64,000 bases of DNA from Shigella phage ESH35, in the sequence record ON528745. The stretch is one strand, 5' to 3'. This document shows, piece by piece, positions 1,096 through 53,344 of this stretch. Below the pieces are notes generated by a model, which was given only the letters and a program-made list of their open reading frames with translations, was not told where the DNA came from and did not search any database. The translations under genes were made by a program, and so were the position numbers. Position 1 is the stretch's first letter, and each line of letters starts with the position of its first letter.

Positions 1096-1623
1096 ATGAA
1101 CGCTAAAGATATTTTCAACTTGGTAAATTACAACGATGGTAAATTTAAATCTGAAGCACAAAGCAAGTTCTTTAATGACATCTCAATCGGAGGTGAAATC
1201 ACTGTTGATGGAGGACAAATTTACAAATCCCGTTGGAATTGGATCGTTATTATCGATGAGATTGGTATTGTAGAAATTTACAAGAATACGAATAAAAATC
1301 GTACATTACACTGGTCTCGTGATACTAACGAACAGTACAAAAAGGATAAAGCATCTAAATTATCTCGTGTAACTCAAGAAGATATTGAGTTCATCAAGAA
1401 AGATATTTTGATGTATGATAACTTAATTGCTGAAGAGCAAGCTGTTATTGATAAATTTGACGAGATTAAAGCTTCTCGTGAAATTCCTGATTTTATGAAA
1501 GAATCAGTAAATGAACGATACACTCTCATTTCAGAGCGTATTGAAACTTACAAAAAGCAAAGAGCTGAACGCCAAAATACTCTTCGGAAGTTTGAAGAAC
1601 GGTTAAAGACGGTACTCGCATAA
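1096..1623 (+). CDS. hypothetical protein with helical/basic C-terminal tail
   Basis: Track ORF 1036..1623 begins inside the promoter cassette; start moved to internal ATG (index 21) preceded by GGAGGAACAGAAA. Confidence 0.55.
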   Translation: MNAKDIFNLVNYNDGKFKSEAQSKFFNDISIGGEITVDGGQIYKSRWNWIVIIDEIGIVEIYKNTNKNRTLHWSRDTNEQYKKDKASKLSRVTQEDIEFIKKDILMYDNLIAEEQAVIDKFDEIKASREIPDFMKESVNERYTLISERIETYKKQRAERQNTLRKFEERLKTVLA

Positions 1624-1678
1624 CCGCTTTATACCAAGGATGGTATAATGGTTCTAAGCCCTTTTAATTGAGATTATT

Positions 1679-2989: not shown

Positions 2990-4015
2990 ATGAAAACTCG
3001 TTCTCAAATTGAAGATATGGTTCGTAATTGCAGCTATACTCGTGATGTTATGACATTTTTGTGCCAAAATAATTTAGACCCTGATAAAGTTAATCGTGAT
3101 ATTCACTTTAAATATATGAATAGCAGTGAATGGTTACGTCATTTTAGTAAAGCAGGGTATATTACGCAAATGACTGCTCGTGAACAGCTCACCGATTTCT
3201 GTAAAACTATTGATTATAAAAATCCTCTATTTGTTCAAGGTGTTGGTCAGAGTAAGGTCGATTTATCATCTGGATTTTTCAATCCAAATCATTATCGTAT
3301 TGAATGGAGATTTATTGCTCTATTCCGTAAACAATTAAAGCAAATTTTGTCGACGGCTAGTCGATTAAAAGGTTCTGACATTAACTTAAAGAATCTGAAA
3401 TTTGATGGTTATACTCTTCAGATGGAAGTAAGACCATTAAAAGAAAATAATAGAACTGCACGAATTAGCTTTAAACCTAGTACTAAAAATTCTCTTTCAA
3501 TTTGTGAATGTCTTAAATCACAGCTGACAGAAGCATTTAAGTATATGGATGTTGTTGCTGCTGTTCAATCTAAGATTTCGCAGCATTTCGAACGATTTAA
3601 ATTAGATACGACAACATATGAACTTGATATGATCGTTTCATTTAAATATGATTTTTTGAGAAAGGACGAAGTTACACAAGAGAAAAAGCAGGAAGTGCAA
3701 GATAACTTAAATTTAAATTTATCCAATTACTTATCAAACGATCCTAAATTTTGGATGTATAGTTCAGGTAATAAGGATGCATGGAAATTCAATAAAGTGA
3801 ATTTTCTTCCTATTGAAAATCCTAGTCTTAAACCTGTTGAAAAATGGCATGCAGATGCGATTGAGAAGTCTCTTAAGGCAGTAGATGATGAACTCGTTAA
3901 AGCGACCAATGAAGTGCTAGAAGCTGAAAAGGCGTTAGAACAAGCTCAGTCAAGGGTTCAAAATCTGACAAAGCAACGTTCTAAACTGAACAATGCACTA
4001 AATGCACTGAACTAG
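2990..4015 (+). CDS. hypothetical protein with C-terminal coiled coil (family member 2)
   Basis: 341-aa ORF starting MKTR..; ends in about 45-aa predicted coiled coil (EAEKALEQAQSRVQNLTKQRSKLNNALNALN). Confidence 0.6.
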   Translation: MKTRSQIEDMVRNCSYTRDVMTFLCQNNLDPDKVNRDIHFKYMNSSEWLRHFSKAGYITQMTAREQLTDFCKTIDYKNPLFVQGVGQSKVDLSSGFFNPNHYRIEWRFIALFRKQLKQILSTASRLKGSDINLKNLKFDGYTLQMEVRPLKENNRTARISFKPSTKNSLSICECLKSQLTEAFKYMDVVAAVQSKISQHFERFKLDTTTYELDMIVSFKYDFLRKDEVTQEKKQEVQDNLNLNLSNYLSNDPKFWMYSSGNKDAWKFNKVNFLPIENPSLKPVEKWHADAIEKSLKAVDDELVKATNEVLEAEKALEQAQSRVQNLTKQRSKLNNALNALN

Positions 4016-4044
4016 TTTACTTTGCCACAAGGATGTGGTATAAT
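4015..4044 (+). promoter_or_regulatory. early promoter (second repeated type)
   Basis: GTTTACTTTGCCACAAGGATGTGGTATAAT; near-identical copy at about 49027. Confidence 0.55.
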
Positions 4045-4072
4045 GTTCTTACTTTCTACTGAGGAGATTATT

Positions 4073-5074
4073 ATGACTCGTAACGAATATATCAAATCAT
4101 TCAATAGCGTTATTGATGATAAAGCTATACCGATGTTTGGACAAAATAGCGTTCTTTCTATTATCAATCAATGGCTCAATAGTGTTGATGCAGGTATTGT
4201 TTCTTCTGCTAAATTTATTCATGAAATTCGTAAAATTTCTAGCCGTGTAGATAAAGATAATATCAAGAAAACCTTTAAAGAGTCTCGTCTTCTTTCATAT
4301 TTGGTTAATCGGGATATTCTTGGTAATTTTGGGAAAGAAATTAAACGAACCAAAGATGTAGTAGGATATAATTGGTTCGGTGATGTTAATTCTTATCATC
4401 TTAATAATAAAGAAGACCCTGAGAATATTTTTACTCGTCGTTGGATTAGTAATTTCAGACTTTTCAAAGGACAAATTCTAAAATCAGCTTCTAAATTATG
4501 TTATGGCGATTATCGTCAAATTCATCCTTTGGCTTCTGATATGATTATCGTAAAAGAATATGAGCTTGATGAAAATAAAGTATCTATTTTTGTGAATTAT
4601 GGATTTTTTACACCAGAAACTAACCAAAAGAATATTAATAAATTTTTCTCAATTGCTAGCACTATAACTCGTCAATTAGAGACCGCATTACTTTGTATGG
4701 AAACAGTAGAAAATATTCATACTTATCCTTTTAAGAATATATGCGGTTGGGAAGGATATAAAATTATAATTAGCCTTCGTGAAGTGAAATGTGCGTACTC
4801 ACCGACTGATAAAGAAATTTACCAACAAAAATGTGAAGAAATTGTGAATACTCCTAAAGAAGAAACTACCCTTGAGGAACTAATGGAATGTCTTGACGAT
4901 TCACCTGAACCGGTAGAAATTCGTCCAGAAGTTATTGCACTAGAAAAAGCTTATAAAGAAGTTCTAGAAATTTCTAATAAAGCACAGAAAGAATATGAGC
5001 AGGCTAAAAGGATTTGGGAAGAATCTGTTAATCGCTTGGATCGTCTTGAACAAGCTTTACAGTTAATTAAGTAA
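4073..5074 (+). CDS. hypothetical protein with C-terminal coiled coil (family member 3)
   Basis: Track ORF 4022..5074 trimmed to ATG (index 18) after GAGGAGATTATT; early promoter GTTTAC..TATAAT upstream; C-terminal coiled coil. Confidence 0.6.
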   Translation: MTRNEYIKSFNSVIDDKAIPMFGQNSVLSIINQWLNSVDAGIVSSAKFIHEIRKISSRVDKDNIKKTFKESRLLSYLVNRDILGNFGKEIKRTKDVVGYNWFGDVNSYHLNNKEDPENIFTRRWISNFRLFKGQILKSASKLCYGDYRQIHPLASDMIIVKEYELDENKVSIFVNYGFFTPETNQKNINKFFSIASTITRQLETALLCMETVENIHTYPFKNICGWEGYKIIISLREVKCAYSPTDKEIYQQKCEEIVNTPKEETTLEELMECLDDSPEPVEIRPEVIALEKAYKEVLEISNKAQKEYEQAKRIWEESVNRLDRLEQALQLIK

Positions 5075-5126
5075 TTTAAAGCCAAGGATGGCTCGGAGTA
5101 TAAATCATTAACCAAGTGAGAAGAAC

Positions 5127-6056
5127 ATGAAAACTCGTAAACATTATATTGATTATTTTGATAGTCTTATTACTAAACACCGTAATTATCAGATCGGACA
5201 CAGAGCAGTAATCAATAATATTCTTCGTGATTTCCTTCAATATGTTGGCCAGGAAAATCATATCTGTAAAGATACTCAGAACGCTTATTCTTATTCGGTA
5301 GGCAATTTGCTTGAATGGTTTAAACGTTCTCGTATGTTATCTTCTACTGTAGCTCGTGATAACATTGAAAACTTTATGAAGCCGAGCTTCATTAAATCTG
5401 CGACATCTATAACCGATTTGGTTGAATTTACTATTGTTAACGATGTTAAAAAGACCCATTTGGCTGATTGGTTATCTACCATTCCTGAAACTAAATTTGC
5501 TGATAAATTTGCTTGTCAATTCAATGACCAAGTGAATATGCTTTTTAAGCATGCTCGCAAACTATTTACCGCGGGCGATGACCGTACAAATACAGTTCAT
5601 GTTAAGGACTGGGTTATTGCTGATGAAGTAACACACAAGCCAGGTGGTTCATCAGTATTAATTAATATCCAGGTTCCTTATTATTACTCACGTAATCTTG
5701 GCACCATGACAGCTAAAGAAATTAATAAGCACAACAAAACTATTCGTTCGTTGTCTTATAAACTCCGCATGGTGTTAAAAATTATGGACGTAGTGGAAAT
5801 GTATGACGAAACCGAAGATAATGGTTCAATGTTATACAGTTCACGCATTCTAATTAAACTGAAGAACCCTAATACATATAAGACAGTTGTAAAAGAGCCT
5901 AAAGTAGAAAAGGTTGATAATCTGAGTGAAGAACGTGAATATCTCAATGCCCGTTTGATTGAAGTTGAAGCCCAAATTACAGAACACACCAAATTGTTAA
6001 AAGCTCTTAATGCAAAAGCAAATGGTTTACGTAATGCTATTGAGGTATTGAAATGA
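5127..6056 (+). CDS. hypothetical protein with C-terminal coiled coil (family member 4)
   Basis: 309-aa ORF starting MKTRK..; C-terminal helix [42 protein letters not shown]. Confidence 0.6.
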   Translation: MKTRKHYIDYFDSLITKHRNYQIGHRAVINNILRDFLQYVGQENHICKDTQNAYSYSVGNLLEWFKRSRMLSSTVARDNIENFMKPSFIKSATSITDLVEFTIVNDVKKTHLADWLSTIPETKFADKFACQFNDQVNMLFKHARKLFTAGDDRTNTVHVKDWVIADEVTHKPGGSSVLINIQVPYYYSRNLGTMTAKEINKHNKTIRSLSYKLRMVLKIMDVVEMYDETEDNGSMLYSSRILIKLKNPNTYKTVVKEPKVEKVDNLSEEREYLNARLIEVEAQITEHTKLLKALNAKANGLRNAIEVLK

Positions 6057-31084: not shown

Positions 31085-32512
31085 GTGGTAGAAATTATTC
31101 TTTCTCATCTTATATTTGATCAAGCTTATTTTTCAAAAGTTTGGCCATATATGGATTCAGAATATTTTGAAAGTGGTCCAGCTAAAAATACATTCAAATT
31201 AATTAAATCTCATGTTAATGAGTACCATAGCGTTCCATCTATTAATGCGTTAAATGTTGCATTAGAAAATAGTTCATTTACTGAAACAGAATATTCTGGT
31301 GTAAAAACACTTATTTCAAAACTGGCTGATTCTCCGGAAGACCACAGCTGGTTAGTAAAAGAAACAGAAAAATATGTTCAGCAAAGGGCGATGTTTAACG
31401 CCACATCTAAAATAATTGAAATTCAAACTAATGCTGAGCTTCCTCCGGAAAAACGAAATAAGAAAATGCCGGATGTTGGTGCTATTCCTGACATCATGCG
31501 CCAAGCATTATCAATTTCATTTGATAGTTACGTTGGTCATGATTGGATGGATGACTACGAAGCACGTTGGCTATCTTATATGAATAAAGCTCGTAAGGTT
31601 CCATTTAAACTCAGAATTCTAAACAAAATTACGAAAGGCGGAGCTGAAACTGGAACGCTGAACGTTTTAATGGCTGGCGTTAACGTTGGTAAGTCATTAG
31701 GATTGTGTTCATTGGCAGCAGATTATTTACAGCTCGGACATAATGTTCTTTACATTTCCATGGAAATGGCAGAAGAAGTCTGCGCTAAACGTATTGATGC
31801 TAATATGCTTGATGTTTCTCTTGATGACATTGATGATGGGCATATTTCTTACGCTGAGTATAAAGGAAAAATGGAAAAATGGCGTGAGAAATCTACTCTC
31901 GGTCGTTTAATCGTTAAACAGTATCCTACTGGTGGAGCAGATGCTAATACATTTCGATCGCTTTTAAACGAATTAAAGCTCAAGAAGAATTTTGTTCCAA
32001 CAATCATTATTGTCGACTATCTGGGTATTTGTAAATCTTGCCGCATTAGAGTTTACTCAGAAAATAGTTACACAACTGTTAAAGCCATTGCAGAGGAATT
32101 ACGTGCTCTTGCTGTTGAAACCGAAACTGTTCTTTGGACTGCAGCACAGGTTGGTAAACAAGCTTGGGATTCTTCTGATGTTAACATGAGCGATATTGCA
32201 GAATCTGCCGGTCTTCCAGCAACAGCTGATTTTATGCTTGCGGTCATTGAAACCGAGGAGTTAGCAGCTGCTGAACAACAACTTATTAAGCAAATCAAAT
32301 CACGATATGGTGATAAGAATAAATGGAATAAGTTTTTGATGGGTGTTCAAAAAGGAAATCAGAAATGGGTAGAAATTGAACAAGATTCTACTCCAACCGA
32401 AGTGAGTGAAGTAGCAGGTTCACAACAGATTCAGGCTGAACAGAATCGCTATCAAAGAAACGAATCAGCTCGAGCTCAGTTAGATGCTTTGGCAAATGAA
32501 TTAAAATTTTAG
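31085..32512 (+). CDS. 41: replicative DNA helicase gp41 (DnaB family)
   Basis: 475 aa; Walker A GVNVGKS; GTG start. Confidence 0.95.
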   Translation: MVEIILSHLIFDQAYFSKVWPYMDSEYFESGPAKNTFKLIKSHVNEYHSVPSINALNVALENSSFTETEYSGVKTLISKLADSPEDHSWLVKETEKYVQQRAMFNATSKIIEIQTNAELPPEKRNKKMPDVGAIPDIMRQALSISFDSYVGHDWMDDYEARWLSYMNKARKVPFKLRILNKITKGGAETGTLNVLMAGVNVGKSLGLCSLAADYLQLGHNVLYISMEMAEEVCAKRIDANMLDVSLDDIDDGHISYAEYKGKMEKWREKSTLGRLIVKQYPTGGADANTFRSLLNELKLKKNFVPTIIIVDYLGICKSCRIRVYSENSYTTVKAIAEELRALAVETETVLWTAAQVGKQAWDSSDVNMSDIAESAGLPATADFMLAVIETEELAAAEQQLIKQIKSRYGDKNKWNKFLMGVQKGNQKWVEIEQDSTPTEVSEVAGSQQIQAEQNRYQRNESARAQLDALANELKF

Positions 32513-32545
32513 TTTACAAGCTGACAAGACTATGGTATAGTAGTC
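32512..32545 (+). promoter_or_regulatory. early promoter upstream of dmd with 9-bp inverted repeat across the -10
   Basis: GTTTACAAGCTGA CAAGACTAT GGT ATAGTCTTG. Confidence 0.5.
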
Positions 32546-44227: not shown

Positions 44228-44728
44228 ATGATTAAAATTAATACTACGTATCAAATGAAAAAACCATCTGAAATTGATTTCCAGACAATGTCGAATACGA
44301 CTGATAGCAAGTTTTGGGAACTTCTTGGTACAACTGGCGGATATCCTTTTACTGTTATTAGTGTTAATAGCGGAATTCTCATTGGTACAGTGTACATGGA
44401 AATTAGAAACTATTATGGAAGGGTATCATCATTCATCATCTATGAAGAAGATTTCAATTTATTGACAGAAATTGAAAAAGAAGAACAAGAAAAATCCCAT
44501 ATTGATATGGATTTAGTTTCTATGTATGTAACACCAGTTGAAAAAATTGAAGACCCGACTGATTTGTTGTGTAAGGCAGTTTATATTCGTCGTCCATTCG
44601 CGAATCCGATTGGCGGTTGGGTAACTGATCAGTGGATTGAAGATGGTGTTGAACTTCTGAACGTAGTTCATGCTGGAGAGTACTCTGTAGTTCCTCGCAG
44701 CGCAGTGATTAATGTTCGTGTAAGCTAG
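44228..44728 (+). CDS. hypothetical protein (paralog pair A)
   Basis: 166 aa; C-terminal motif VTDQWIEDGVELLNVVHAGEYSVVP. Confidence 0.5.
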   Translation: MIKINTTYQMKKPSEIDFQTMSNTTDSKFWELLGTTGGYPFTVISVNSGILIGTVYMEIRNYYGRVSSFIIYEEDFNLLTEIEKEEQEKSHIDMDLVSMYVTPVEKIEDPTDLLCKAVYIRRPFANPIGGWVTDQWIEDGVELLNVVHAGEYSVVPRSAVINVRVS

Positions 44729-44801
44729 TTTACAAACTCTTGGGATCAGAGTATAATGGTCCTGCGGAGTATAAAATCTTTTTAACAAGTGAGAGATAAT
44801 T

Positions 44802-47160: not shown

Positions 47161-47206
47161 ATGATTGCCGGAGTATAATATTCCCGAAACCAAACGAGGA
47201 TAAGTG

Positions 47207-49024
47207 ATGATTAAGAATGAAATTAAAATTCTGAGCGATATTGAACATATCAAAAAGCGTAGCGGCATGTATATTGGCTCTTCTGCTAATGAAATGCATG
47301 AGCGCTTTCTGTTTGGTAAATGGGAAAGTGTTCAGTATGTACCTGGTCTTGTTAAGCTTATTGATGAAATTATCGATAACTCAGTAGATGAAGGTATTCG
47401 TACTAAGTTTAAATTCGCGAATAAAATTAATGTTACCATTAAAGATAATCAGGTAACAGTTGAAGATAACGGTCGCGGTATTCCACAAGCGATGGTTAAA
47501 ACACCTACTGGTGAAGAAATTCCTGGTCCTGTTGCTGCCTGGACTATTCCAAAAGCAGGTGGTAACTTCGGTGATGATAAAGAACGCGTCACCGGTGGTA
47601 TGAATGGTGTTGGTTCTAGTTTGACAAACATTTTTTCTGTGATGTTTGTCGGTGAAACTGGCGATGGTCAAAATAATATTGTAGTTCGTTGTTCAAATGG
47701 TATGGAAAATAAATCCTGGGAAACTATTCCTGGAAAATGGAAAGGAACTCGTGTTACTTTCATTCCTGATTTTATGTCATTTGAAACTAATGAGCTGTCT
47801 CAGGTTTATCTTGACATTACACTGGACCGTCTCCAGACACTTGCTGTCGTTTATCCTGATATTCAATTTACTTTTAATGGTAAAAAGGTTCAGGGCAATT
47901 TTAAGAAATATGCACGACAGTATGATGAACATGCTATTGTTCAAGAACAAGAAAATTGTTCTATTGCGGTTGGTCGTTCACCGGATGGTTTTCGTCAATT
48001 AACTTACGTGAATAACATTCATACTAAGAATGGTGGCCATCACATTGACTGTGTTATGGATGATATTTGCGAAGACCTTATTCCACAAATCAAACGTAAA
48101 TTCAAAATTGATGTAACTAAAGCACGCGTTAAAGAATGTTTGACTATCGTTATGTTTGTTCGTGATATGAAAAACATGCGATTTGATTCTCAAACTAAAG
48201 AGCGTTTGACTTCTCCATTTGGCGAAATTCGTAGTCATATTCAACTTGATGCTAAAAAGATTTCACGCGCTATTCTAAATAATGAAGCAATTCTGATGCC
48301 GATTATTGAAGCTGCGTTGGCTCGTAAATTGGCGGCAGAAAAAGCAGCAGAAACTAAAGCAGCTAAAAAGGCTTCTAAAGCTAAGGTTCATAAACATATC
48401 AAAGCGAATCTTTGTGGTAAAGATGCTGACACTACTCTTTTCTTGACTGAGGGTGATTCTGCTATCGGATATCTTATTGATGTTCGTGATAAAGAACTTC
48501 ATGGTGGTTATCCATTGCGTGGTAAAGTTCTTAACAGCTGGGGTATGTCATATGCTGATATGCTTAAAAACAAAGAACTATTTGATATTTGCGCAATCAC
48601 TGGATTAGTTCTTGGTGAAAAAGCTGAAAACTTGAATTATCATAATATTGCTATTATGACCGATGCTGACCATGATGGTCTAGGAAGCATTTATCCTTCT
48701 CTGCTCGGGTTTTTTAGTAATTGGCCAGAATTGTTTGAGCAAGGACGAATTCGCTTTGTCAAAACTCCTGTAATCATCGCTCAGGTCGGTAAAAAACAAG
48801 AATGGTTTTATACAATCGCTGAATATGAGAGTGCCAAAGATGCTCTACCTAAACATAGCATCCGTTATATTAAAGGACTTGGCTCTTTGGAAAAATCTGA
48901 ATATCGTGAGATGATTCAAAATCCAGCATATGATGTTGTTAAACTTCCTGAGAACTGGAAAGAGCTTTTTGAAATGCTCATGGGAGATAATGCTGACCTT
49001 CGCAAAGAATGGATGAGCCAGTAG
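47207..49024 (+). CDS. 39: DNA topoisomerase II large subunit, fused gp39+gp60 type (GHKL ATPase + TOPRIM)
   Basis: About 605-aa single ORF (track 47204 GTG, ATG at 47207); MIKNEIKILSDIEHIKKRSGMYIGS.. recognised; longer than split T4 gp39. Confidence 0.92.
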   Translation: MIKNEIKILSDIEHIKKRSGMYIGSSANEMHERFLFGKWESVQYVPGLVKLIDEIIDNSVDEGIRTKFKFANKINVTIKDNQVTVEDNGRGIPQAMVKTPTGEEIPGPVAAWTIPKAGGNFGDDKERVTGGMNGVGSSLTNIFSVMFVGETGDGQNNIVVRCSNGMENKSWETIPGKWKGTRVTFIPDFMSFETNELSQVYLDITLDRLQTLAVVYPDIQFTFNGKKVQGNFKKYARQYDEHAIVQEQENCSIAVGRSPDGFRQLTYVNNIHTKNGGHHIDCVMDDICEDLIPQIKRKFKIDVTKARVKECLTIVMFVRDMKNMRFDSQTKERLTSPFGEIRSHIQLDAKKISRAILNNEAILMPIIEAALARKLAAEKAAETKAAKKASKAKVHKHIKANLCGKDADTTLFLTEGDSAIGYLIDVRDKELHGGYPLRGKVLNSWGMSYADMLKNKELFDICAITGLVLGEKAENLNYHNIAIMTDADHDGLGSIYPSLLGFFSNWPELFEQGRIRFVKTPVIIAQVGKKQEWFYTIAEYESAKDALPKHSIRYIKGLGSLEKSEYREMIQNPAYDVVKLPENWKELFEMLMGDNADLRKEWMSQ

Positions 49025-49026
49025 TT

Positions 49027-49056
49027 TACTTTACCACAAGGATGTGGTATAATTAA
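49027..49056 (+). promoter_or_regulatory. early promoter upstream of rIIA.1/rIIA
   Basis: GTTTACTTTACCACAAGGATGTGGTATAAT, one mismatch from the 4015 copy. Confidence 0.55.
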
Positions 49057-49078
49057 TTGGGCAAATGAGGATATTGGA

Positions 49079-49282
49079 ATGAAATCATATAAAGTAAATT
49101 TAGAACTTTTTGATAAAGCAGTTCATCGAGAATATAGAATCATTCAACGCTTTTTCGATATGGGAGAAGCCGAAGAATTTAAAAACCGCTTTAAAGATAT
49201 TAGAGATAAAATTCAATCCGACACTGCAACTAAAGATGAACTACTAGAAGTTGCTGAAGTTATTAAGCGTAATATGAATTAA
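49079..49282 (+). CDS. hypothetical protein (rIIA.1 position)
   Basis: 67-aa ORF after early promoter GTTTAC..TATAAT. Confidence 0.5.
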
Positions 49283-53269: not shown

Positions 53270-53344
53270 AATTTTTTCACAAAACGGTTTACATACCACA
53301 AGGACCGTGGTACTATTACCCTATCAACTACGGAGGAGCGGAAA
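53270..53344 (+). promoter_or_regulatory. early promoter/leader cassette copy D
   Basis: TTTTCACAAAACGGTTTAC...CGTGGTACTATTACCCTATCAACTACGGAGGAGCGGAAA. Confidence 0.6.

Follow-up and report, generated by a model that had tools for sequence, protein, structure and literature searches.

Near-identical early promoters of a T4-like phage and the hairpin carried in their spacer

Two early-type promoters at separate gene junctions

Shigella phage ESH35 (sequence record ON528745) carries two near-identical copies of a 30-bp sequence of early-promoter type, 45 kb apart, and the spacer of each copy contains a short inverted repeat that can fold into a hairpin as RNA. The stretch analysed here, which is 64,000 nucleotides long and is referred to as the window, is that of a Tequatrovirus (a T4-like phage), and its orientation is reversed relative to the T4 map. 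Copy A is found at the junction of nrdC.5 and nrdC.4, and copy B at the junction of gene 39 and rIIA.1. A related sequence, site C, is located between nrdC.8 and nrdC.7 (Table 1).

Copy A (GTTTACTTTGCCACAAGGATGTGGTATAAT) and copy B (GTTTACTTTACCACAAGGATGTGGTATAAT) are both on the + strand and match at 29 of 30 positions, the sole difference being G4024 in A and A49033 in B. The identity runs two nucleotides further 5', into the TAG stop codon of the preceding gene (31/32), and the flanks are alike only at chance level for a genome of 65% A+T (23 of 100 positions upstream and 36 of 100 downstream). None of the shuffled versions of the window gave two matches to the element. The original prediction of a near-identical early promoter pair therefore holds, with a second copy that begins at 49024 and not, as had been given, at about 49027. 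The related core that was predicted to precede the open reading frame (ORF) at 1679-2086 is also present, since CCAAGGATGGTATAATGG is found exactly at 1634-1651 in site C.

Both copies have the anatomy of the T4 early promoters, the class with an UP element, a -35 element, TGn and a -10 hexamer. GTTTAC is present at -35 (4015-4020 in A, 49024-49029 in B), followed by a spacer of 17 bp, TGn and TATAAT, and a simple promoter scan reads both copies as TTTACT-17-TATAAT with TG before the second hexamer. The likeness extends to the early strand, the early-region gene located directly 3', the short leader and the GAGGA Shine-Dalgarno (SD) sequence. The + strand of the window has 12 sites of the GTTTAC-N18-TATAAT type where 0.9 are expected, and in Yersinia phage fPS-2 (NC_054943.1) exactly the copy B 30-mer is annotated as a "predicted early promoter". 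Copies A and B are thus likely to act as sigma-70-dependent early promoters. They differ from typical members of the class in two respects. Firstly, most T4 early promoters have an A/T-rich UP-like block (consensus ..AAAA..TTT.A.AAA.T.; A+T is 20/25 upstream of site E, for example), whereas in A and B coding sequence reaches the -35 element and the 25 nucleotides upstream have an A+T content of 16/25 and 14/25, respectively. Secondly, A and B have a self-contained hairpin in the spacer. Site C is of a different type, with the sequence of a MotA-dependent promoter (cGCTTTA at 1625-1631, 12 bp, TATAAT at 1644-1649). A short ORF starting from an ATG inside AAGGATGTGG was considered as an additional product and dropped, as its SD spacing is not usable and its length is not the same in A and B.

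The identity of A and B was compared with that among T4 early promoters as a class, represented by 39 strict sites on the early strand of the full T4 genome. The mean pairwise identity of their spacers is 6.6/18, while A and B agree at 17/18, and among the 39 promoters no spacer position from -30 to -18 reaches 50% consensus. The match between A and B spans the whole spacer and is not confined to the -35 and -10 hexamers, so that it exceeds what the T4 early promoter consensus explains, as was originally proposed. At the same time, A and B are one pair of many. Six pairs of T4 promoters have a spacer identity of at least 15/18, against 0.024 expected from column-preserving shuffles, and near-identical early promoters are therefore a general feature of T4. 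In two T4 pairs the spacers agree at 18/18 and the identity continues into the flanks (63/80). The A/B pair reaches only 40/80 overall, the least flank identity of the top pairs, and its likeness is confined to the core.

Further near-identical families are found at T4 positions (NC_000866) 146875/55384, 136336/123093, 166807/27080/53943/70696 and 57990/20612, with an example in the window at 32512-32541. The two T4 pairs with extended identity are 30/30 identical over the promoter and remain alike into the upstream A/T block and the 5' leader; the leader ACAACTATCAACTAC is common to many T4 early transcripts.

The pair is not specific to this phage. The original prediction had proposed a check of whether relatives carry the element at the same positions, and in T4 (NC_000866) each of sites A, B and C indeed occupies the corresponding junction, and T4 copies A and B are distinguished by the identical G/A exchange. 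The element was recovered from 741 phage records by a short-query search, in most cases from two places per genome, and about 650 of these match at 31 or more of 32 positions. In phage AR1, copy A carries the A allele, so that both copies are 30/30 identical. Because of this, the G/A difference is a two-state polymorphism within Tequatrovirus. Loci related to nrdC.4 and rIIA.1 were found in only five Tequatrovirus contigs each, which is too few for population statistics. An alignment of seven Tequatrovirus sequences, a small sample chosen by exact match to the promoter, shows an almost invariant block of about 150 bp with copy A at its centre (approximately 3970-4185) and variable coding sequence on both sides. 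The block runs from the last part of nrdC.5 through promoter and leader to about codon 17 of nrdC.4.

Table 1. Positions of the promoters, hairpins and adjoining genes in the window
Feature	Position	Strand	Remarks
nrdC.5	2990..4015	+	TAG stop overlaps the first base of copy A
Copy A, early-type sigma-70 promoter 5' of nrdC.4	4015..4044	+	-35 GTTTAC/TTTACT, 17-bp spacer, TGn 4036-4038, -10 TATAAT 4039-4044; predicted start near 4051; same in T4
Hairpin A	4023..4040	+	UGCCACA-AGGA-UGUGGUA, 7 pairs including one G.U; alternative drawing CCAC-AAGGAU-GUGG
nrdC.4	4073..5074	+	Gene served by copy A
Gene 39, topoisomerase II large subunit	47204..49024	+	TAG stop overlaps copy B; start is the mechanical ORF start
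Copy B, early-type promoter 5' of rIIA.1	49024..49053	+	Predicted start near 49060; same in T4
Hairpin B	49032..49049	+	UACCACA-AGGA-UGUGGUA, 7 Watson-Crick pairs
rIIA.1	49079..49282	+	Gene served by copy B
Site C, MotA-type (middle) promoter-like, 5' of nrdC.7	1622..1649	+	cGCTTTA, 12 bp, TATAAT; hairpin UUAUACCA-AGGA-UGGUAUAA at 1629-1648
Site D, hairpin AGCCA-AGGA-UGGCU between nrdC.4 and nrdC.3	5080..5093	+	Inside weak promoter-like ATTTAA..TATAAA; not part of the original prediction
Site E, early promoter GTTTACATACCACAAGGACCGTGGTACTAT	53287..53316	+	Hairpin UACCAC-AAGGACC-GUGGUA at 53294-53312; orthologue of T4 position 167086; not part of the original prediction

The spacer hairpin and its relatives in other phages

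As RNA, the spacers of A and B fold into a 7-bp stem with an AGGA tetraloop (-8.2 kcal/mol each, local z of about -3.5). The hairpin can be written as (U[G/A])CCAC-AAGGAU-GUGG(UA), where the 3' arm is formed by the extended -10 sequence TGTGG and the TA of the -10 hexamer. The only difference between the two copies lies in the stem, where an A-U pair is exchanged for G.U. Hairpins A and B are both entirely upstream of the predicted start sites; hence, the folded RNA would exist only in transcripts that read through from the upstream gene. No match to an Rfam family at gathering thresholds was found in the window.

On the early-sense strand of T4, four of 60 AAGGAT hexamers are closed by four or more Watson-Crick pairs, compared with none of 58 on the opposite strand (binomial P = 7e-4). 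These four are A, B, C (TTATACC-AAGGAT-GGTATAA) and D (AGCC-AAGGAT-GGCT), that is, three different stems around one loop. All are intergenic, and the loop begins 41-44 nucleotides before a start codon. The distance from the loop to the -10 element differs among A/B, C and D, and the loop is therefore not a fixed polymerase contact. Four of the 39 T4 early promoters have a hairpin with GGA in its loop within the spacer, where the expected number per promoter is 0.0025.

The core CCACAAGGATGTGG is also encountered in other genera, at junctions that are not orthologous to those in Tequatrovirus. A scan of viral contigs for the bare 14-mer gave mostly chance hits in unrelated coding sequence, and only matches in a promoter context were kept. 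These comprise three sites in Jiaodavirus (including the motB/x and gp43/x junctions), the gp41/sp and gp43/x junctions in Winklervirus CHI14, a site after an alt-like ORF in Dhakavirus, and sites in several further T4-like contigs. A second sample was chosen solely by the C-terminus of the DNA polymerase gp43, independently of the hairpin. Depending on the lineage, the promoter after the gp43 stop codon reads CCACA-AGGA-TGTGG, TCACA-AGGA-TGTGA (where the change in the outer pair is compensated) or CCAC-ATGGAAC-GTGG. Another lineage has a wholly different stem, GGCAA-TGGA-TTGCC, and lacks TGn. Karamvirus PS49 has TACCACA-CGGA-TGTGGTA after gp43. In two lineages there is a longer hairpin around the -10 element with no GGA, in one case together with a T-run. 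Just 3' of the gp43 stop in three T4-like contigs of about 175 kb (L189, L198 and L206), the -10 hexamer TAAAAT is placed in the loop of a 9-bp hairpin, GTGTTGGGC...GCCTAACAC, which is followed by TTTTT; here, an early promoter and an intrinsic terminator overlap fully.

Mosigvirus WFL6982, which was found by protein homology to nrdC.7, has orthologues of two of the other sites. At site C the hairpin is ACCC-AAGGAC-GGGT, with two compensatory pairs, and at site D it is AACC-AAGGAT-GGTT, again compensatory, within TGTACA-N17-TATAAT. Among ten distinct hairpins, 90% of cells are paired, compared with 55±5% in shuffles (0/500) and 25-57% in slid controls. Double changes occur at all six pairs (covariation 0.852 vs 0.217). 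The A, G, G and A of the loop are invariant, and the loop across the variants is A-[A/U/C]-G-G-A-[U/C].

Two further candidates were set aside. A hairpin 5' of a -35 element in Edwardsiella phage PEi20 was withdrawn, because the gp43 sample shows a degenerate promoter with a 15-bp spacer there and a fortuitous GTTTAC downstream. The match in Acinetobacter phage Maestro is a likeness of the promoter only, with no GGA hairpin.

Overlap between promoter and hairpin is common among T4 early promoters. The region from -30 to +22 has a mean minimum free energy of -10.4 kcal/mol, compared with -5.5 kcal/mol in random windows of the same strand (P = 3e-6). In T4 genes e, soc, 49 and I-TevI the promoter lies inside a hairpin, and the read-through RNA differs in structure from the promoter-initiated RNA. 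Similarly, in many of the T4 early promoters studied here the spacer pairs with the +1 region or the downstream SD. A and B resemble the e/soc/49/I-TevI type in that the 5' arm of the hairpin is upstream of the start, so that only read-through RNA folds. In contrast to A and B, that type has a late promoter and a hairpin in which the SD is sequestered, while hairpins A and B are wholly upstream of the start and exclude the SD. In copies A and B, this pattern of overlap takes a compact form.

Several arrangements occur within the pattern. The -10 element is placed in a hairpin loop at T4 promoters 20612, 57990, 65799, 73939, 133331, 70359, 146143 and 7215. At T4 promoters 8218, 62797, 53943, 166807, 130310 and 15288 an anti-SD in the spacer pairs with the downstream SD; in about six T4 early promoters a TTCCTC within the spacer pairs with the GAGGA SD of the gene that follows. 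In these cases the SD would be masked in read-through RNA and accessible in promoter-initiated RNA. The orthologue of T4 7215 in the window (44728-44757, promoter GTTTACAAACTCTTGGGATCAGAGTATAAT) has a spacer hairpin, ACTCT-TGGGATC-AGAGT, with GGA in the loop and an unrelated stem. By far the commonest hexamer closed by stems of four or more base pairs on the T4 early-sense strand is CTTCGG (15 cases), corresponding to UUCG-tetraloop hairpins that are presumably terminators or stabilisers.

What keeps the two copies alike

The explanation favoured here, with a probability of roughly 0.6, is that A and B are two early promoters of long standing in which the spacer also serves as a hairpin under selection that acts on read-through RNA from upstream, the whole forming a compact cassette of the promoter-early stem-loop (PeSL) type. 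Each copy, placed directly 3' of the stop codon of nrdC.5 or gene 39, would restart transcription for nrdC.4 or rIIA.1. Two constraints would apply to the same 30 bp: the promoter itself, consisting of GTTTAC, the extended -10 TGTGG and TATAAT, and a short hairpin with a fixed A-N-G-G-A-Y loop. Because the 3' arm is made of the extended -10 and the TA of the -10 hexamer, the 5' arm would be forced to (U[A/G])CCAC. With about two free positions left where the two constraints overlap, A and B would be nearly identical for this reason. The stem-loop may act on upstream-derived RNA through attenuation, through the stability of 3' ends or processing products, or through recognition of the loop by a protein, and the promoter would then re-initiate transcription. 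The cassette is old and is met with at varying junctions in different genera, where selection would maintain it. The anatomy of the promoters, the age, the covariation and the strand bias are shown by the sequences; promoter activity, read-through and the action of the hairpin are inferred.

Within one 30-bp sequence, a promoter is thus combined with a structured element whose loop is sequence-specific; the element recurs with covarying stems across at least six genera, including at promoters of the MotA type and at weak ones. If the hairpin does act on RNA, it would add a layer to the ways in which T4-type phages separate or insulate adjacent transcription units.

Several points weigh against this explanation. 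There is no general excess of ANGGAN hairpins in T4 (5 vs 3.3±1.6 genome-wide), the enrichment being limited to the AAGGAT loop, and in 50 kb of CHI14 hairpins with a GGA loop are spread over both strands without bias (26 vs 24). The TGTGG of the 3' arm is common in T4 early promoters for promoter reasons, so that part of the "stem" needs no RNA role. T4 sites C and D inflate the covariation count, because the presence of a stem was a requirement for finding them, and homology probably links many of the CCAC/GTGG copies, which would then not be independent. Terminator function would be weak at best: the 7-bp stem of both copies is short, a U-rich tail is present in copy A alone, and a simple terminator scan is passed by copy A and not by copy B. 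Finally, the PeSL of PST and T4 is drawn with its stem-loop 5' of the -35 element, after an AT-rich tract, whereas that of A and B lies inside the spacer.

It may also be argued that no constraint other than the promoter is needed. The 30-mer would then be a near-optimal polymerase site, with the spacer retained for DNA shape or contacts, and the inverted repeat and the GGA would be incidental. The consensus of T4 early promoters is known to extend beyond the canonical elements, TGTGG is a frequent extended -10, and the Acinetobacter phage promoter resembles the element without having the hairpin. This explanation appears unlikely, given that the class has no majority base anywhere from -30 to -18, and that the AAGGAT hairpin also occurs in the MotA-type site C and at site D, at other distances from the -10 element. 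The wholly different GGCAA/TTGCC stem without TGn occupies the same spacer position and retains an NGGA loop. Furthermore, the A/B polymorphism exchanges A-U for G.U, and the arms covary.

If the loop is recognised by a protein, the host regulator CsrA is one candidate. The CsrA consensus obtained by SELEX is RUACARGGAUGU, with GGA in an ANGGAN hexaloop closed by no more than 4 bp, and CsrA can bridge to a second site 10-63 nucleotides away. Hairpins A and B, drawn as CCAC-AAGGAU-GUGG, and their variants present GGA in such a hexaloop on a short stem with a core of up to 4 bp. The copies read cCACAAGGAUGUGg, a match of 10/12 to the consensus that is exact over ACARGGAUGU, and the A-[A/U/C]-G-G-A-[U/C] loop is kept across the variants. 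The SD of nrdC.4 is GAGGAG, with its GGA at 4063, 32 nucleotides 3' of the loop GGA of hairpin A; that of rIIA.1 has its GGA at 49069, 29 nucleotides 3' of the loop GGA of hairpin B. Both distances are within the bridging range. The loop GGA, the short stem and the second GGA in the SD are features shared with known CsrA/RsmA hairpins (the glgC leader, the CsrB repeats). [quoted passage not shown] In that case several T4-like genera would carry a conserved A-N-G-G-A-Y hairpin in promoter spacers as a site for such a factor, and this hairpin would mark only read-through polycistronic RNA.

We regard this as doubtful. Part of the UGU/ACA stem follows from the extended -10, which leaves the loop alone as a free match, and unlike in CsrA/RsmA hairpins, the site, predicted from sequence, would not be included in the RNA that the promoter itself initiates. 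No GGA is present in the SDs after sites C and D, the missing ANGGAN excess in T4 counts here as well, and no link between T4 and CsrA was found in the literature; a search for the exact element sequence also returned nothing relevant. RegB was rejected as a reader of the loop, because it cleaves GGAG and the loops here are GGAU or GGAC. Were CsrA or another such factor involved, the phage could treat read-through and promoter-initiated copies of one gene differently, or early gene expression could be coupled to the Csr state of the host. The hairpin offers a defined 20-nucleotide target for asking whether a host RNA-binding protein such as CsrA acts in T4 early expression.

The original prediction had viewed the identity as a sign of recent copying that marks recombination points. 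One promoter would then have been copied onto the other recently, or the two would be kept alike by gene conversion through ectopic recombination, and their identity would be historical and not functional. The pair agrees at 29/30, with spacers far more alike than the promoter consensus requires, and the 30/30 identity in AR1 could reflect conversion. Recombination on short homologies occurs in T4, and it has also been reported for PeSL cassettes. Recent copying is nevertheless not borne out. Both copies are found at the same loci in T4 and hundreds of relatives (741 records), with the same or a two-state allele (A/A in AR1), and the same core is present in other genera whose genes are far more diverged. 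The identity ends exactly at the element, with flanks at chance level, and the stems show compensatory change. In addition, A and B are direct repeats with 45 kb between them, and recombination from one to the other would remove this region together with the replication genes that it contains (41, 43, 44 and 45). The recent part of the proposal is largely refuted, and duplication or conversion as a whole seems quite improbable, although a locus-wise phylogeny of conversion is limited to one variable position. Near-identical intergenic repeats in T4-like genomes thus need not mean recent copying. The duplicated promoter is ordinary T4 biology and marks neither a recent event nor a breakpoint in this genome.

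Least plausible of all is a double-stranded DNA operator, in which the palindrome CCACA-N4-TGTGG would be bound by a dimeric host or phage regulator of a subset of early promoters, for example in early shut-off: the 5+5 inverted repeat occupies the middle of the spacer, so that a protein bound to it would block polymerase, and the mechanism of T4 early promoter shut-off is reported as unknown, but the arms vary (CCAC, TACC, AGCC, AACC, ACCC, GGCA, TCAC) around an invariant asymmetric A-N-G-G-A-Y centre, contrary to what a dimer operator would show, the motif is confined to one strand (4 vs 0), and the G.U-compatible polymorphism would break a DNA palindrome.

Relation to PeSL cassettes and to gene shuffling

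PeSL cassettes are repeated in RB49/phi1 and in T4/PST, and were proposed to mediate modular shuffling (Arbiol 2010, PMC2839356; Comeau 2014, PMC4122927). Like A and B, they combine a strong early promoter and a stem-loop in an intergenic gap that ends with an SD and ATG; in both A and B the strong sigma-70-like promoter is followed by the SD and ATG of the next gene. They are also alike in being repeated within a genome, in occurring at different junctions in related phages, and perhaps in a link to differences in gene content. The position of the stem-loop sets them apart: it is not just 5' of the promoter with an AT-rich tract, because in A and B the upstream stop codon abuts the -35 element. 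The stem-loop of the RB49 PeSL is G/C-rich and works as a terminator, while A and B have at most weak terminator features. Moreover, the described PeSL stem-loops differ from A and B, where the 3' arm is shared with the extended -10 and the loop has a conserved GGA. We read the embedded hairpin with its GGA loop as a compact variant of this known type of cassette.

The claim that the element marks recombination points receives indirect support only. Within Tequatrovirus, no rearrangement was seen at the A or B junction. Between genera, the nrdC cluster of the window has the order nrdC.8, C, nrdC.7, nrdC.6, nrdC.5, A, nrdC.4, D, nrdC.3, while that of Mosigvirus is nrdC.8, C', nrdC.6-like, D', nrdC.3, and the differences in gene order fall at cassette positions. 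For T4-type early promoters, such a role is proposed in the PeSL literature. The evidence from gene order is weak, because whole-gene insertions and deletions necessarily end in intergenic DNA.

In Mosigvirus WFL6982, the region from gene 39 to rIIA.1 (contig L214, 2428-3662) has no CCACAAGGATGTGG promoter. Gene 39 is followed there by a canonical terminator, GCTCC-TTCG-GGAGC with TTCATTTT, and by an extra ORF of 366 amino acids, and an 11-bp inverted repeat (GGCACTATTAC...GTAATAGTGCC) brackets the leader of rIIA.1. The terminator is consistent with a stem-loop being wanted directly 3' of gene 39.

The nrdC cluster also contains what appears to be an older duplication. The products of nrdC.3 (5127-6056) and nrdC.4 are diverged tandem paralogues, with 25.6% identity over 227 amino acids (E = 4e-8), and each gene is preceded by an AAGGAT hairpin cassette whose loop begins 43-44 nucleotides before the start codon. 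This suggests that the gene and its cassette were duplicated together long ago, which is compatible with cassette-mediated shuffling.

At the copy B junction, gene 39 is a single ORF in the window. In T4 the mobA/60.1 insertion divides it into genes 39 and 60, and gene 60 has a translational bypass.

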